41,341 nt of DNA from Candidatus Kaiserbacteria bacterium (GCA_007116405.1 SKIN01000038.1:1-41341), one strand, 5' to 3'. Shown: positions 2,249-8,419, numbered from the stretch's first letter. The notes: a model not told the origin generated them from the letters alone. Numbers and translations are program-made.

Positions 2249-2509
2249 CTATGTAATTTCTGTGTATATTCTGATATTATTACCTTTTACGTACATGACC
2301 GCTTGCTCGAACTGGTAGGTCATGTCACCCTCCTGTGCGGTATGAACAACGATAGGCTCATTCCGAATGAGGGTGACGAAGTTGGCGTGCATAGGTAGTA
2401 CGTCAAAAGGTCCGTCACTGTTCTTTGACGATACGGCAGTCGCATCCCCTTCCCACACCACAGTTGTGGCCTTACTTATCCGCACCTTCAATGTCTCGTC
2501 TTCACTCAT
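2249..2509 (-). CDS. atpC: F-type ATPase epsilon subunit, short form (beta-sandwich domain only, 86 aa)
   Basis: It is the last gene after beta. The pattern LKVRISKATTVVWEGDATAVSSKNSDGPFDVLPMHANFVTLI matches the N-terminal epsilon fold (l.v.ivtP....f.g.v..v..p...GefgiLpgHap.it.l). There is no C-terminal helical hairpin. Confidence 0.75.
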   Translation of the reverse strand: MSEDETLKVRISKATTVVWEGDATAVSSKNSDGPFDVLPMHANFVTLIRNEPIVVHTAQEGDMTYQFEQAVMYVKGNNIRIYTEIT

Positions 2510-2518
2510 GATCTCTTA

Positions 2519-3916
2519 TCAGTCGCGAAGTGACTCCAGACTGCCGATATAGAGTAATGCGGATGCAGGCACCTTGTCATATTTTCCATCTAGTATTTGT
2601 CTAATATCTCGGATAGTTGTTGTTCTGGGTACAAATTGTCCTGGTCGACCTGTTTGAACCTCTGCGGTGAAAAACGGCTGGGTGAGATAATTGAGTACTT
2701 TCTGTCCCCGGTCATATATGACTCTGTTGTCTTCCGAGAGCTCATCCTCTCCAACAATGGCCACAATTCGTACGAGACGCTCATGTTGGTGTAGCAGATC
2801 GACAGCTTCTGTCACCGTCTTATAGTGTTCTTTGCCAATGAACCTTTCGTTGAGGAGCGCGCTTCTGCTTCTTGTGTGGTCTACTGCCGGCAACCTGCCT
2901 TGTTGTGCTATGTTCCTGTCGAGAATTACTACTGAGTCTACATGGGGCACTGTTACCGCAATACTTGGGTCTGATAACTCATCTGCTGGGAGATACATCG
3001 TCTGTACTGACGTAACACTGTTTGATACGGTGCTTCGTAGTCTGCTTTCAAAAGAGGCTATCTCAGACTGTAGCGTTGGCTGGTAACCAAATTCAGATGG
3101 TATCTCGCTTGCAAGTGTTGACAGTTCACTGCCGGCCTGCAAGAAGCGGTACACGTTGTCCACGAAGAAGAGTACATCTTGTTGTTCCTCGTCCCTGAAA
3201 TACTCCGCAAGAGCCGTTGCTGACCACGCTGTACGAAATCGAATAGCAGCGTTTCTATGGATGTTGCCGAGCATGAGTACCACGCGCTCTAGGAGTCCTT
3301 GTTTTTCCAGCCAACTCCACAACTCATGTCCCTCGCGAGTGCGCTCTCCGATGCCGGCAAATATCGATACTCCTTCATGTGCATTAAGCAAGCCCCGTAT
3401 CATCTCGGTCATGAGCACGGTCTTCCCAACACCTGCACCGCCGACCAATAGCAACTTCCCTCCTTCTTGCATAGGAGTAAAGAAGTCGATCGCTTTGATG
3501 CCAGTTTCGATGAGTGCGCGATCGGTCCGCTGATCGAATGAAGGCATCGTTCCCTTGCTGTGAATGGAGCGCCATGAACGTGCATCAATGGGCCCCCTGC
3601 CATCCTCAGGATTCCCAAAAAGATCCATCGCACGACCCAGGACCCCTTCACCTACCGGCACACTGATCTCTTGTCCTGTGGAGAGAATACGGTCACCCCT
3701 GGTGAGGAGCGTATAGCTTGAAAGTAGCAGGCAACGCAGCACTCTGTCATTCTCATACGCGTACGCCTCAAGGCGTATTGATTGATCCTTCTCGGCGAAC
3801 AAGAGCTCCCGGAGTGGTGGGCGATACTGACCGTCACACATCACCGTGAGCACCTGCCCTTGCAGGTCTCGCACCCTTCCTACTGGACGATAGGTTGTTT
3901 GTTTTTGTTGTGCCAT
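2519..3916 (-). CDS. atpD: F-type ATPase beta subunit (catalytic)
   Basis: Walker [26 protein letters not shown], Walker [17 protein letters not shown], and a DELSED loop ([12 protein letters not shown]). Confidence 0.95.
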
Positions 3917-4743
3917 TGTATGTATCCTACTAATGTTTCAAGCATCTGCCTGCTTGCAATGTTGGTGTACGCTTTGCGTAGGGCGCGACCTTCTCTGCGA
4001 AGCAGCTTTTGTGCATTTTGGTCAGCACTGTCCATTCTGACCAGGCGGGCCGATATACGCGAGAGCTGCGTCTCGAGGAGGATGCGCTCAAATAACGCGC
4101 TTCGAACCTGCTGATCAAAGAACGCCATCATTTCATCCAGTTCTGGCTCAAGAAGGAATTCTGCTCCATCCTCATCATCAACATCTTTAGATGTATGTCC
4201 ATCAGGCTGAAACGTGATATCGACCATACTGGCTTCCTGCGTGAAGACACTTACGAATTTCGGGTAGAATACGATGACCTTGTCGTAACGCGCGATTCGA
4301 TCCAAGAACGCCTTGTTCTCGTCATCTGAGGGCGTGTCATCCAAAAATGACATGTACTCAAGGGCTTTACGTTTTTTAGCATTTGAAAGCCAGTATCGTT
4401 TACCAGTGTCACCGATGATGAGGCAGCGATCTTCGGTGCCGGTACTCTTCATGAAGAGTTGCATCGTGTTGTAGTTTAGTGCTCCGTAAAAGTGGCGATT
4501 TGTGGTGTAGGCAACATACAACGTCTTCTTTTCGCGCTCGGGTTGCTCTTTGTCGCGTTCCCTCGCCATTCGCCACACGAGACGGTAGAGATCCGTCAGC
4601 TCCGTGTAGAAAGTGAAATTGGTCCCAAACCGCTGCATGAGTTTGCCGAGTTCTATGGCGCTAATATCTCGGAGAGTACCAGTAATATAGCGAGCGGTCG
4701 CTATATCTTCGATGCGTTGTTTTTGTTCTCTTATGTGTGACAT
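3880..4743 (-). CDS. atpG: F-type ATPase gamma subunit
   Basis: N-terminus [32 protein letters not shown] and a C-terminal helix ...[20 protein letters not shown]...[13 protein letters not shown] typical of gamma. It lies between alpha and beta and overlaps both neighbours. Confidence 0.85.
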
Positions 4744-7551: not shown

Positions 7552-7564
7552 AATGTGCACGTTA

Positions 7565-8404
7565 TCAAGGAGCCATGATAATGGCGACGGCAACAGCGAA
7601 TCCTATGCCGCTAATAACAATAAGTAAGAAGGCGTTCCAAAGTACCATCGAACGGATCTGCGACCTGGCAAGTGGATTGCGACCAACGGATATGACGCTC
7701 TGGGAAAAGGCGTCTCCAAATCGACGTGCTGCGACGATGACCGTCCCCACTGCAACAATAGACGCGAGCAAGTACCGGAACATTTTGAAGAGGTCCAGAC
7801 CCCGTTCGCCGTCCGGCTGTGTTGAGCCGGGCATATATCCCAGTGCTGTCGTCGACGCAAGGAACGCGGAACTCTGGCCGCTTACGTACGGACCGATACG
7901 CAATGCTACAGGCACACTACCGACGCGAATGGTCCTACCTTCAAGGTCGAGAATATCTCCGGTCAGAACCATGTCCTCAAGAGCAAACCCCATGACGTAC
8001 GCTCCTTGGTCACGACTGATGCGCTGGCCTTTGCCCGCAATGTACGAGGTGGTTACCAGATCCCCTGCCAGTATAGGGCCTGTGGCGTCTGTCACGTTGA
8101 CCGAGACATTTCCATATCGAACAACAGGCACTGCACCCTCTTCATCAGCGCCATCTGTCATGTACATGACTGGTTCGAGTACAACAACACCAAACATCAT
8201 TTCGTCTTCAGGCAACTGGCTGGGGTGCACGGTTCCCGACTCGGCATCATACGAAACTATGTCACCGTCAATGACATCCCCACGAGCAACGAAGGGAGAT
8301 GCTACGGTGGCTTCAGGGCCGAACGAAACCGCCGTCGCGCTCAAAGGCACGACGACGAGTCCAATAAAGTACATAAAACAAGCAACGAGCCCTGCAGCCT
8401 TCAT
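7565..8404 (-). CDS. First gene of the ATPase operon: signal peptide plus about 200-aa beta-rich extracytoplasmic domain plus a C-terminal two-helix hairpin resembling ATPase subunit c
   Basis: Signal peptide MKAAGLVACFMYFIGLVVVPLSATA. The C-terminus SQSVISVGRNPLARSQIRSMVLWNAFLLIVISGIGFAVAVAIIM aligns with chloroplast c [44 protein letters not shown] (R-N/Q-P loop and the following IR conserved). The position of the essential Glu is Ile. Confidence 0.55.
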   Translation of the reverse strand: MKAAGLVACFMYFIGLVVVPLSATAVSFGPEATVASPFVARGDVIDGDIVSYDAESGTVHPSQLPEDEMMFGVVVLEPVMYMTDGADEEGAVPVVRYGNVSVNVTDATGPILAGDLVTTSYIAGKGQRISRDQGAYVMGFALEDMVLTGDILDLEGRTIRVGSVPVALRIGPYVSGQSSAFLASTTALGYMPGSTQPDGERGLDLFKMFRYLLASIVAVGTVIVAARRFGDAFSQSVISVGRNPLARSQIRSMVLWNAFLLIVISGIGFAVAVAIIMAP

Positions 8405-8410
8405 GAAAAC

Positions 8411-8419
8411 AGTATACCA
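8411..8419 (-). promoter_or_regulatory. Extended -10 promoter TGGTATACT, 6 nt upstream of ATG 8404 (leaderless ATPase operon mRNA)
   Basis: Minus strand reads TTGGTATACT-GTTTTC-ATGAAG. No SD sequence. Confidence 0.5.

Follow-up and report, generated by a model that had tools for sequence, protein, structure and literature searches.

A conserved F-type ATPase-derived operon of Patescibacteria with a c-subunit homologue that lacks the ion-binding carboxylate

Organization and conservation of the operon

The window, a stretch of 41,341 nucleotides from Candidatus Kaiserbacteria bacterium (GCA_007116405.1 SKIN01000038.1:1-41341), contains seven tightly packed ORFs on the minus strand from 8404 to 2249, which encode a protein that we call X, a b-like protein, delta, alpha, gamma, beta, and a short epsilon (Table 1). 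The intergenic spacings from X to epsilon are +13, +9, -23, -13, -37, and +9 nt, and three further assemblies of this strain, for which independent gene callers were used, give all seven ORFs at identical lengths. A preliminary description of this DNA had reported seven packed or overlapping genes and a promoter in front of them, and both were recovered here. The promoter element, TGGTATACT, was read directly upstream of X; in at least nine related loci an element of the form TGnTATAMT precedes the ATG by 6-8 nt, and four motifs of this type occur in the 41 kb window compared to 1.3 expected. The transcription start is putative, and the transcript of the X operon is putatively leaderless.

Table 1. 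Features of the X operon and its flanks (positions counted from the first letter of the window)
Feature	Position	Strand	Description
Large surface protein, start	1..1779	-	At least 593 aa, cut by contig end; translation
Epsilon	2249..2509	-	86 aa; N-terminal beta-sandwich only, without C-terminal inhibitory helices
Beta	2519..3916	-	465 aa; Walker A 3419..3442, GERTREG 3329..3349, DELSEDN 2726..2746
Gamma	3880..4743	-	287 aa
Alpha	4731..6179	-	482 aa; degenerate P-loop GPIQSGVE at 5706..5729
Delta/OSCP homologue	6157..6681	-	174 aa
b-like peripheral-stalk protein (probable)	6691..7551	-	286 aa from ATG 7551; 300 aa from alternative TTG 7593
X	7565..8404	-	279 aa; signal peptide, surface ectodomain, and c-subunit hairpin; predicted rotor-ring subunit
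X C-terminal transmembrane hairpin	7574..7792	-	aa 205-277; homologous to F-type c subunit
X helix-2 stretch N257-I262	7619..7636	-	I262 at ion-binding Glu/Asp position; N257 is the conserved interfacial Asn
X cytoplasmic loop GRNPLA	7667..7684	-	aa 241-246; aligns with ARQPE of c subunits
X ectodomain	7889..8305	-	aa 34-172; all-beta, phage cement/decoration-protein-like fold
X signal peptide (predicted)	8327..8404	-	aa 1-26; predicted helix 3-21 in model
Extended -10 promoter element	8419..8411	-	TGGTATACT, read from the sequence; 6 nt upstream of X ATG
Accessory protein, lineage-specific	8500..9510	-	HTH_17-like aa 16-50, long low-complexity region, C-terminal membrane anchor aa 314-336

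The canonical operon for the bacterial F1Fo ATP synthase has the order a-c-b-delta-alpha-gamma-beta-epsilon (atpBEFHAGDC), and from the c slot onward the X operon follows the same order. The arrangement X-b-delta-alpha-gamma-beta-epsilon recurs in 83 loci from different species across Parcubacteria and Microgenomates, and is thus beyond chance; in more than 70 of these loci X occupies the c position. This finding removes the possibility, considered earlier, that the 279-aa protein is merely adjacent to the other genes in one genome. Apart from the seven operon genes, no family is common to most of the 83 loci; the next most common real genes nearby are GatB-like (27 loci) and Obg-like (22 loci). 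X is found at full length in 136 clusters; GTDB species genomes contain at least 532 matches to it, and 843 protein clusters (50% identity) represent it at E<=1e-30. One metagenome-assembled genome (MAG) carries two complete X operons on two contigs. We found no published description of an operon of this type in the literature. Judged by sequence, the X operon, conserved in the ultra-small CPR/Patescibacteria, derives from the F-type rotary ATPase, with the ion-translocating half replaced.

A c-type hairpin and a surface ectodomain in protein X

Several comparisons relate the C-terminal hairpin of X to the c subunit. A profile search of the PDB with the hairpin matched F-type c subunits only (E 0.002-0.3), hhalign aligned it with a c subunit at 89% probability (E=2e-6), and Foldseek matched it to c subunits with TM 0.75-0.86 and an rmsd of about 2 A. 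When canonical c sequences were used as queries among about 9,000 ORFs, X homologues alone were matched. In c subunits the R-Q/N-P loop is the contact site for gamma and epsilon; its equivalent in X, GRNPLA, is invariant in two alignments (119/119 and 80/80 sequences). Compared to canonical c, helix 1 of X is 6 residues shorter in the GxGxGxG region, and X lacks the membrane carboxylate: the column of the ion-binding Glu/Asp is occupied by V, I, L, A, F, or G in all 80 sequences. An Asn five residues before this column, present in 71 of the 80, is the only conserved polar residue and sits at the cytoplasmic interface; Ser/Thr are common in helix 1. Taken together, sequence and model indicate that the C terminus of X is a genuine c-subunit hairpin with a purely hydrophobic membrane core. 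The c slot therefore holds, as first described, a fusion protein without the ion-binding carboxylate, composed of a c-type hairpin and a secreted domain.

Hairpins without a carboxylate are known inside active rings, as in c1 of Acetobacterium woodii. The double hairpins of V-type enzymes likewise include c-type hairpins that lack the carboxylate (PMC9171764). In both cases, however, subunit a is present and the ion site survives in the other hairpins of the ring, whereas in predicted rings of X every copy would lack the carboxylate, leaving no ion site at all. We consider it very unlikely that the complex is an ion or solute pump, or a synthase, that operates through a carboxylate-free site made up of the Asn with Ser/Thr and in which an unrecognised partner, such as the membrane helix of the b-like protein or of a helix-turn-helix (HTH) protein, replaces subunit a. 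Such a site is suggested by the conservation of the Asn in helix 2 and the frequency of Ser/Thr in helix 1, and in Parcubacteria a single-pass membrane protein is encoded in the "a" slot. Nevertheless, the helix limits of the model put the Asn close to the cytoplasmic face, some 3 residues deep in the membrane and away from its middle, and we know of no rotary ATPase that couples without a carboxylate. Furthermore, neither the b-like nor the HTH proteins have a membrane helix of conserved sequence, and Microgenomates loci lack the small HTH protein upstream of X.

X extends the canonical c subunit by a signal peptide and an ectodomain of 140 aa. The residues A-T-A at positions 23-25 are compatible with a signal-peptidase site before V26, where we infer that the signal peptide is cleaved, and AxA/AQ motifs occupy the same alignment position throughout the X family. 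The AF2 model of X has a pLDDT of 88 overall and above 90 in the ectodomain; in the same model the linker between ectodomain and hairpin (residues 188-199) is disordered, and it is variable in the family. Foldseek matched the ectodomain to the capsid cement proteins of BB1, XM1, and Pam3 (E 3.5e-5 to 2e-4) and, in BFVD, to tail or appendage modules (E 3e-11). Searches of X against Pfam and NCBIfam returned no family at threshold and no NCBIfam model; weak matches of the ectodomain to PF23982 and PF09956 were seen in 6 of 32 members. The fold thus resembles that of phage cement proteins (XM1 gp53, PF23982; Phage_cement_2, PF09956; PDB 8pkh, 7kmx, 8hdt), but identity is just 12-25%, and unlike those proteins the X ectodomain is tethered to a membrane hairpin and encoded in a cellular operon, around which no phage context was seen. 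Phage capsid cement and decoration proteins oligomerise on surfaces.

The F1 head, the stalks, and flanking membrane proteins

The soluble part of the complex is homologous to canonical F1. Alpha, gamma, beta, and epsilon exceed the Pfam gathering scores (PF00006, PF00306, PF00231, PF02823), and all four are below the cut-offs of the equivalent NCBIfam equivalog models. For example, beta scores 447 bits with TIGR01039, for which the cut-off is 463, and alpha, which matches PF00006 at 2e-51 in addition to PF00306, scores 300-323 bits with atpA models, also below cut-off. Gamma (PF00231 at 5e-26), which makes up the central stalk together with the short epsilon, belongs to a family found in 71 loci. 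Walker A is kept in all 66 beta homologues and GER[ITVS]RE[GV] is conserved, and with DELSEDN also present beta is predicted by motif to be catalytically intact, as had been proposed. In alpha the P-loop lacks the Lys; among 71 homologues Walker A is kept in 38 and lost in 33. The epsilon match to PF02823 is to the N-terminal domain only and covers residues 7-84. Truncation of epsilon relative to canonical F1Fo, which has a C-terminal domain, is a family trait (median length 89 aa, inhibitory tail usually absent) and is consistent with operation in the ATPase direction.

Delta was recognized only through its family profile, which matched OSCP/delta chains in the PDB at E=4e-5 and below (about 20 of 27 matches were delta/OSCP), while PF00213 was detected on the delta homologue of one related locus, L088. 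The b-like protein, from a family found in 73 loci, has one membrane helix, not conserved in sequence, followed by about 240 aa of helix; the helices in the AF2 model span residues 8-38, 42-182, 186-260, and 265-281. Its length of 235-300 aa in the family compares to about 160 for canonical b. Profile matches to subunit b, which include the membrane helix, are weak (3e-4 to 0.03) and lie among generic coiled-coil matches; together with the architecture, they make the protein a probable peripheral-stalk subunit b. The initial view of this locus as encoding a complete F1 with both stalks is therefore upheld, with b as its probable member. The degenerate alpha P-loop and double-length b that the preliminary description also pointed out are both present here, but are features of this clade and not of the whole family.

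Incomplete ATP synthase gene sets in CPR bacteria have been read as the result of loss through genome streamlining (PMC10656485), and the X operon could accordingly be viewed as the decaying remnant of an ATP synthase, a "minimal complex" with no coherent function, a view that the degenerate alpha P-loop favors. The ORFs are nonetheless intact and tightly coupled, their order is kept in hundreds of species, X contains invariant motifs, and those of the beta catalytic site are fully conserved. Non-catalytic sites comparable to that of alpha are also degenerate in functional V/A-type B subunits. We therefore regard decay as extremely improbable.

In agreement with the initial reading of the locus, neither a subunit a gene (PF00119) nor a free c gene gave a match at E<=10 in the window or in the 83 related loci, for which as much as 10 kb of DNA to either side of X was covered (about 1.5 Mb; with the window, 84 genomic contexts). 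Canonical atpB and atpE may coexist elsewhere in X-bearing genomes. One interpretation is that the X operon is part of a split but conventional ATP synthase, with a and c encoded elsewhere and X acting as an accessory or assembly factor in the c slot. Consistent with this, a published table of 33 CPR genomes lists mostly complete F-type sets, including a and c, and the X operon keeps a peripheral stalk, the normal partner of which is subunit a. This interpretation appears improbable to us, given that X retains an invariant loop for binding gamma and epsilon in its conserved c position, that no a or free c gene occurs in about 1.5 Mb of flanking DNA, and that a single MAG contains two complete X operons. 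In addition, one genome in the same table has two copies each of alpha, beta, gamma, and epsilon and one each of a, b, c, and delta, as would be expected if an X-type set coexists with a canonical set and shares no parts with it.

The operon is flanked by proteins that combine an HTH module with a membrane helix, an observation that goes beyond the preliminary description, in which the protein in the "a" slot was considered unrelated. That protein, at 8500..9510, matches PF12728 at 8e-4. In 27 loci a small ORF of this kind immediately precedes X, in four of them at a distance of 1-2 nt; such ORFs occupy this "a" slot in Parcubacteria. On the other side, the protein encoded at 1..1779 has an N-terminal HTH module and one membrane helix, followed by Gly/Ser/Thr-rich, beta-helix-like repeats; its gene sits at the end of every assembly of the strain. 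In 36 of the 54 informative loci, a large ORF with an N-terminal HTH begins less than 2 kb after the epsilon gene, and its ectodomain varies (bactofilin-like, FG-GAP, intein). Counting either side, 52 of the 83 loci have an adjacent HTH ORF with a membrane helix, compared to just five such ORFs elsewhere in the flanks, and in three cases (L032, L081, and P0119) HTH_17 and a membrane helix are fused to X itself. These associations contradict the view that the neighbouring protein is unrelated. The HTH modules could be plain DNA-binding regulators.

Relation to other rotary ATPases and proposed function

The X operon is distinct from other divergent rotary ATPases. V/A-type models score at most 126 bits with beta and 94 bits with alpha, far below F-type models. 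The N-ATPase (atpDCQRBEFAG; PMC2881411) is also encoded by a divergent F-type operon that occurs second to or instead of the canonical one, but it retains a and an ion-binding c, includes AtpQ and AtpR, and has another gene order, whereas the X operon has neither AtpQ/R nor a. The alt_F1F0 models, with cut-offs of about 750 bits, gave scores of 293 and 401 bits.

The closest parallel is with the F1-like X0 ATPases of mycoplasmas, of which Type 2 is the gliding G1-ATPase of M. mobile and Type 3 is needed for MIB-MIP antibody cleavage (PMC3369863, PMC11864180, PMC12994834). These enzymes have a demonstrated non-bioenergetic role and, like the X operon, are encoded in seven-gene clusters (PMC3369863, PMC12994834) that combine alpha-, beta-, gamma-, and epsilon-like subunits with non-Fo membrane proteins. 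X shares its domain layout with one protein of these clusters, "Protein 5", in which a signal peptide and a surface-exposed domain precede two membrane helices at the C terminus (PMC3369863, PMC12994834). Both systems adjoin large or specialised surface proteins, and for both a delivery of ATP-driven force across the membrane is proposed. The mycoplasma clusters differ in lacking b and delta and in encoding two other components, one a 12-TM protein and the other small and cytoplasmic (PMC12994834), whereas the X operon keeps b-like and delta proteins and has neither of those two. Alpha and beta do not belong to the mycoplasma families: scores with the MSC_0618/0619 and MMOB1660/1670 models were 185, 340, 245, and 371 bits against cut-offs of 520, 570, 600, and 850, and canonical atpA and atpD models scored higher. 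Similarly, beta scored 321 bits with the M. mobile G1 beta compared to 350-410 bits with solved F1 beta chains. Because alpha and beta are closer to canonical F1, the resemblance appears to be convergent, and the two systems probably arose independently. The comparison with mycoplasmas made in the preliminary description is thus apt for the architecture of the cluster protein, but does not extend to the ancestry of alpha and beta.

The explanation that we favor, although we consider it only about evenly balanced between right and wrong, is that the X operon encodes an ATP-hydrolysing rotary motor with an ion-blind ring that delivers torque to the cell surface. X would form a c-ring-like rotor, and F1 would act as an ATPase that turns or torques this ring against a b/delta stator. 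Since the predicted ring would bind and carry neither H+ nor Na+, the output would be mechanical work, transmitted across the membrane to the cell surface. This work would act on a crown of X ectodomains and probably also on the flanking HTH_17/MerR membrane proteins, which are sometimes fused to X. The principle would be that proposed for the mycoplasma F1-like X0 enzymes, in which gliding legs or MIB-MIP antibody cleavage are driven.

Several observations weigh against a motor. No subunit a is encoded nearby as a membrane counterpart for the stator to push on; the disordered linker of the X model is poorly suited to torque, unless the ectodomains form a ring; in the HTH-X fusions, the stalk would leave no room for the extra helix and cytoplasmic domain, unless these are removed by cleavage; and the 33-genome table, with its mostly complete F-type sets, contains no F1-only case. 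The first three would fit a non-rotary, ATP-driven switch or anchor, in which X forms a static platform for conformational change or for the regulated attachment of surface proteins: the stator would have nothing to keep it beside the ring, the ectodomain would be flexibly linked, and fusions that obstruct free rotation would be tolerated. For the Type 3 enzyme of mycoplasmas, too, a model based on conformational change has been put forward. Yet gamma, epsilon, delta, and b are all kept and conserved, as for a rotor/stator pair, and the rotor-binding loop of X is invariant, which leads us to view a switch or anchor as unlikely, if not negligibly so.

The rotary motor can be placed in a broader setting. 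Tentatively, and with more doubt than confidence, we propose that the X operon represents a widespread, ancient machine of Patescibacteria, in which F1 spins an ion-blind ring that bears surface domains and is coupled, via a shared N-terminal HTH_17 and membrane-helix module, to large and variable surface proteins. If this is true, these bacteria possess a device that is powered by ATP and transmits torque across the membrane, to serve host attachment, surface movement, or surface remodelling, and the X operon would encode the first counterpart of the F1-like X0 motors beyond the mycoplasmas. It would also show a route from ATP synthase to mechanical motor, a conversion that would be visible here because the b/delta stator and a recognizable c hairpin are still kept.

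The protein in the c slot

The C-terminal hairpin of X, the protein that occupies the c slot of the seven-gene X operon (see Table), is a c subunit. The AF2 model of X (pLDDT 88) starts with a hydrophobic helix that bears an AxA-type cleavage motif, continues with an all-beta domain (residues 34-172) and a short helix and ends, after a disordered, variable linker (188-199) that is predicted to be flexible, in a helical hairpin (205-242 and 244-277). When searched against the PDB, the profile of the X family matched F-type c chains only, with nine of the ten best matches at E values of 0.002-0.3. 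Comparison of the hairpin with four canonical c sequences using hhalign gave 89% probability (E 2e-6), and Foldseek aligned it to c subunits with TM scores of 0.75-0.86 at approximately 2 Å. In the reverse search, X homologues were the sole matches to single canonical c queries among the approximately 9,000 ORFs of the window and 83 related loci, each of which covers up to 10 kb on either side of an X homologue.

The column of the ion-binding Glu/Asp is occupied by V, I, L, A, F or G in all 80 X sequences (I262 in the window). The sole conserved polar residue of helix 2 is an Asn (71 of 80 sequences) located five residues before this column, at the cytoplasmic edge of the membrane, and six residues are deleted from the GxGxGxG region of helix 1. 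The preliminary description of the c slot as a fusion protein lacking the ion-binding carboxylate is thus confirmed. A GRNPLA loop that aligns to the R-Q-P loop of c subunits, which contacts gamma and epsilon in known enzymes, is invariant and makes X easy to use as a family marker.

The ectodomain has the fold of phage capsid cement or decoration proteins and of modules of phage tail and appendage proteins (structure matches at E 3.5e-5 to 2e-4 in the PDB and 3e-11 in BFVD); the Pfam families PF23982 and PF09956 match weakly, in a minority of members. Although this fold is phage-like, an origin of the region as a phage-derived island is ruled out by its housekeeping surroundings and uniform composition. 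The remainder of the 41-kb contig encodes CPR housekeeping functions (GatB, Obg, SecA, MurB/C/D, glycosyl hydrolases and transferases, CofD), and nucleotide composition is even along its length. Elsewhere on the contig (30093-33600, minus strand), a TrwB/TraG-like coupling ATPase (683 aa) adjoins a secreted protein with LTD and PKD domains (483 aa); this pair may be part of a patescibacterial type IV secretion or conjugation-like apparatus.

X belongs to a large family. A word-indexed search recovered 136 full-length relatives, and a profile search recovered 843 clusters at 50% identity (E<=1e-30). In GTDB, sampled at one genome per species, at least 599 pattern matches were found, at least 532 of which were confirmed. 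A few loci (L002/L003, L045, L068 and L076) encode X without F1 genes in the available flanks; in L045 and L068 these flanks span as much as 10 kb. In L002, X adjoins a DUF2270 gene, and a further protein of L068 (1,058 aa) combines an X-like domain with a Peptidase_S74 chaperone module.

Table. Coordinates of the X operon, its flanking genes and associated motifs (window positions unless a related locus is named)
Feature	Position	Strand	Remarks
Extended -10 element TGGTATACT	8419..8411	minus	
X	8404..7565	minus	279 aa
b-like	7551..6691	minus	286 aa (300 aa from TTG 7593)
delta	6681..6157	minus	174 aa
alpha	6179..4731	minus	482 aa
gamma	4743..3880	minus	287 aa
beta	3916..2519	minus	465 aa
epsilon	2509..2249	minus	86 aa
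HTH_17-like domain and C-terminal membrane anchor protein	8500-9510	minus	336 aa; upstream of X
HTH module, one membrane helix, beta-helix-like repeats	1-1779, off contig end	minus	starts 470 nt after epsilon
Other TGnTATAMT motifs	21815-21823, 21967-21975, 26029-26037	minus	upstream of murB and the CDP-alcohol phosphatidyltransferase gene
Large or giant surface protein, example	L004:16431-20546		
Large or giant surface protein, example	L064:16027-20670		
Large or giant surface protein, example	L070:16094-20650		
Large or giant surface protein, example	L088:1-8614		

Catalytic head and stalks

Alpha, gamma and beta score above their Pfam thresholds, as does the N-domain of epsilon. All four subunits fall below the NCBIfam equivalog cut-offs (447 versus 463 bits for beta, 300-323 versus 484-554 for alpha), indicating a divergent F1. 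No Pfam or NCBIfam match was found for the X, b-like and delta-slot proteins of the window. The retention of catalytic motifs originally noted in beta extends to the family: Walker A (its lysine is K165 in the window) is kept in 66 of 66 homologues, with GER[ITVS]RE[GV] and a DELSEED-like loop. The degenerate P-loop of alpha, in contrast, is a trait of the window's clade, which has lost the Lys, and not of the whole family, as alpha Walker A is kept in 38 of 71 homologues. Beta scores 350-410 bits against solved F1 beta chains compared to 321 bits against M. mobile G1 beta, and the NCBIfam models rank in the order canonical atpD, alternate F1Fo, gliding and MSC_0618. By these scores, the head is a divergent F1 and not a relative of the mycoplasma paralogues.

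Both stalks are represented. A profile of 30 delta-slot proteins matches OSCP/delta chains at E values of 4e-5 and below, and one delta homologue carries PF00213 in precomputed annotation. Members of the b-like family begin with a single membrane helix, continue as a long helical region and share a conserved motif at the C-terminus; their profile gives weak subunit b matches that include the membrane helix (3e-4 and 0.02-0.03), amid non-specific coiled-coil matches. The AF2 model of the b-like protein places helices at residues 8-38, 42-182, 186-260 and 265-281, with a pTM of 0.30 that leaves their packing and the question of a hairpin unfixed, and it gave no Foldseek matches.

A long b and a truncated epsilon are both present in the window, as first described; the former is a trait of the window's clade, and the latter is usual in the family without being universal. 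The b-like family has a median of 240 aa, the window's clade carrying an insertion of approximately 50 residues. Epsilon has a median of 89 aa, corresponding to the beta-sandwich only, with the exception of a 140-aa protein at L088:15898-16320 (OZ246394.1, a 1.61-Mb genome), so the C-terminal part of epsilon has not been lost in every family member.

Conservation, putative promoter and surface-protein neighbors

The seven-gene order, including X, is conserved across Parcubacteria and Microgenomates. Single-sequence phmmer searches found all seven genes in 51 of the 83 related loci, and in nine more a gap separates X from alpha-gamma-beta-epsilon because b or delta has diverged beyond the reach of the query; two ORFs (237 and 161 aa) lie in this gap in L001. 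Contig ends cut 14 of the 83 loci, and approximately nine have X alone, at least one of which (L067) is complete on a longer contig. In all-against-all clustering, the seven operon genes were the sole families common to most loci. This conserved order rules out that X is merely adjacent to an ATPase operon. The absence of subunit a, first noticed in the window, holds at the scope of the loci: an E. coli query had no match at E<=10 in the approximately 1.5 Mb of the window and 83 loci, and neither atpB nor atpE was found on the 41-kb contig. In the window, successive genes from X to epsilon are separated by +13, +9, -23, -13, -37 and +9 nt (negative values are overlaps), and the same seven protein lengths occur in three other, independently annotated assemblies of the same strain, which were reached through the b-like protein, an exact look-up of the window's X having given no record.

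Lineages with X include Parcubacteria/Paceibacteria and Kaiser-, Sung-, Gottesman-, Davies-, Chisholm-, Roizman-, Levy- and Shapirobacteria. Closed or nearly closed genomes carrying X comprise OZ246394.1, JAQTZF010000001.1, JBMORU010000001.1, JBAZXP010000001.1, CAVPHZ010000001.1, an 894-kb contig of ERZ25039586 and, from the window's strain, GCA_007124915.1. Many metagenome-assembled genomes (MAGs) bear titles that read "Gammaproteobacteria" or "Saccharibacteria"; the former titles are placeholders, as beta in the loci so titled is 54-90% identical to that of loci labelled Microgenomates or other Patescibacteria. A separate case is L080 (JBILVZ010000001.1, titled Methylococcaceae), a contig of 115 kb assigned to a methanotroph bin. 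It carries X-alpha-gamma-beta, with a beta only 49% identical to its closest counterpart in a labelled CPR locus, and may reflect either a transfer or an epibiont contig placed in the wrong bin. One MAG, Gottesmanbacteria GW2011_GWA2_43_14, carries two X operons, L037 (LCFP01000017.1), with all seven genes, and L038 (LCFP01000013.1), with no epsilon detected after beta. They are 51% identical in X, 65% in beta and 32% in b. If both operons belong to one genome, they reflect an old duplication and favor a specialized, duplicable machine; otherwise, the bin is mixed. On another Gottesmanbacteria contig, 3.5 kb are inserted between X and b (L050:10741-14284) and 2.7 kb between alpha and gamma (L050:17154-19838), possibly mobile elements or inteins.

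A leaderless transcript of the X operon is plausible from the sequence upstream. The extended -10 element TGGTATACT ends 6 nt ahead of the X start codon with no Shine-Dalgarno sequence between them; TGnTATAMT occurs 6-8 nt ahead of the ATG in at least nine related species and is found only four times in the whole window, compared to 1.3 expected. A generic scan for consensus -35/-10 promoters and terminators found sites no more commonly than in shuffled sequence and missed this element because it demands a -35; our promoter call rests on conservation across species, not on the scan. The same motif ahead of murB and the CDP-alcohol phosphatidyltransferase gene suggests that this is the organism's usual promoter type. 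Approximately 45 nt upstream of the X start (approximately 8445-8453, minus strand) lies a second motif, TAYACACAG (GTACACAG in the window), which is found at the equivalent position in L004, L005, L006, L008, L009 and L012-L014, forms an inverted repeat in L004 (ATACACAG-N6-CTGTGTAT), and may be an operator. TATACACAG appears again at 2260-2268 (minus strand), at the end of epsilon.

Proteins with an N-terminal HTH_17/MerR domain and one membrane helix (the HTH module) flank the operon. In 27 loci, a small ORF of this kind immediately precedes X, at a distance of 1-2 nt in four of them. Large ORFs with the same module, defined as reaching 500 aa or running into the locus end, begin no more than 2 kb downstream of epsilon in 36 of the 54 loci with enough sequence there and are adjacent upstream in seven, compared to only five HTH-module ORFs elsewhere in the flanks. 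Divergent upstream proteins with MerR/HTH_17 reach 2,893 and 4,679 residues in Microgenomates. The ectodomains of HTH-module proteins vary, including bactofilin-like repeats, FG-GAP repeats, inteins, and tail-fibre chaperone and lyase modules, and every assembly of the window's strain breaks inside the large gene downstream of epsilon. In L032:8858-10717, L081:9314-10618 and the homologue P0119, the module and X form a single in-frame fusion protein that comprises HTH_17, membrane helix, ectodomain and c-like hairpin. The HTH-anchor protein and X are a gene fusion/fission pair, and these fusions, together with the adjacency, link the HTH module to the ring subunit; the module may either dock on the motor or bind DNA. 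The preliminary description had considered the upstream HTH/tail-anchored protein unrelated, a view that the 27 loci and three fusions overturn; the link to surface proteins is an addition to that account. By contrast, an upstream protein of approximately 315 aa in L087 and L088 was ruled out as part of the system: it is cytoplasmic and DeoR/Fic-like, and it occurs in only one other locus, L067, from the same species as L087.

A candidate motor and known F1-derived systems

The X operon combines a complete F1, both stalks and a homologue of ring subunit c without the ion site, with no subunit a nearby and with conserved adjacency to surface proteins. We infer that X forms a rotor ring and that F1 hydrolyzes ATP, a direction consistent with an epsilon that has lost its inhibitory tail; torque or force at the cell surface would be the output. 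Fused HTH-X forms would clash sterically unless the N-terminal module is cut at the AxA-like site after its membrane helix.

The closest parallel is the mycoplasma F1-like X0 ATPases, Types 2 and 3, which are encoded by seven genes (PMC3369863, PMC12994834): a 12-TM protein, a small cytoplasmic protein, gamma-, epsilon-, alpha- and beta-like proteins, and a surface protein with a signal peptide, a surface domain and two C-terminal membrane helices (PMC12994834). These clusters lack b and delta (PMC12994834). Type 2 drives gliding, and Type 3 is required for MIB-MIP antibody cleavage (PMC3369863, PMC12994834). The original paper states that F1-like X0 has no equivalent in other bacteria (PMC3369863). 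The likeness proposed earlier holds for the apparent principle and the X-like architecture, which is common to both. It does not extend to family membership: because the CPR operon has other alpha and beta families, no 12-TM protein and a b/delta stalk, we place it outside F1-like X0 and regard it as a variant of the F-type ATPase that is independent of that family.

Previous CPR surveys, in which X goes unmentioned, record an F-type ATPase that is present, complete, "F1 only" or "minimal" (including PMC10656485), and CPR papers present ATP synthase as ordinary or absent. In a per-genome COG table, a and c are present in most CPR that carry F-type genes (PMC10656485); this table includes none of the X-bearing genomes identified here, and the supplement of PMC9166423 is too coarse for co-occurrence of X with atpB/atpE. 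In one Saccharibacteria genome, alpha, beta, gamma and epsilon are each present twice and a, b, c and delta once (PMC10656485), as would be expected if an X-type operon accompanied a canonical one. A homologue search for this genome, using X from a contig labelled Saccharimonadales, returned only Microgenomates relatives. Our literature searches found no paper joining "F1-like" with Patescibacteria and nothing relevant on the c-ring and ion binding in CPR.

CPR/Patescibacteria make up a large part of bacterial diversity, lack a respiratory chain and live as epibionts. Their "ATP synthase" genes are routinely read as a normal or partly lost complex V (including PMC10656485). If a widespread subset encodes a motor unable to move ions, reconstructions based on proton motive force from this enzyme are wrong for those genomes. 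The X-type operon may replace or accompany a canonical ATP synthase, and would be the sole rotary ATPase in the first case and an added motor in the second; the present analysis covers loci of up to 10 kb on either side of X. Such a motor would be a new class of energy-to-mechanics machine, at the interface that faces hosts. It would also represent an evolutionary intermediate, in which the stator stalk and an identifiable c hairpin are kept and the ion path is lost, making directly testable a conversion of ATP synthase into a force generator for which the mycoplasma systems, being much more derived, have so far allowed no more than inference.
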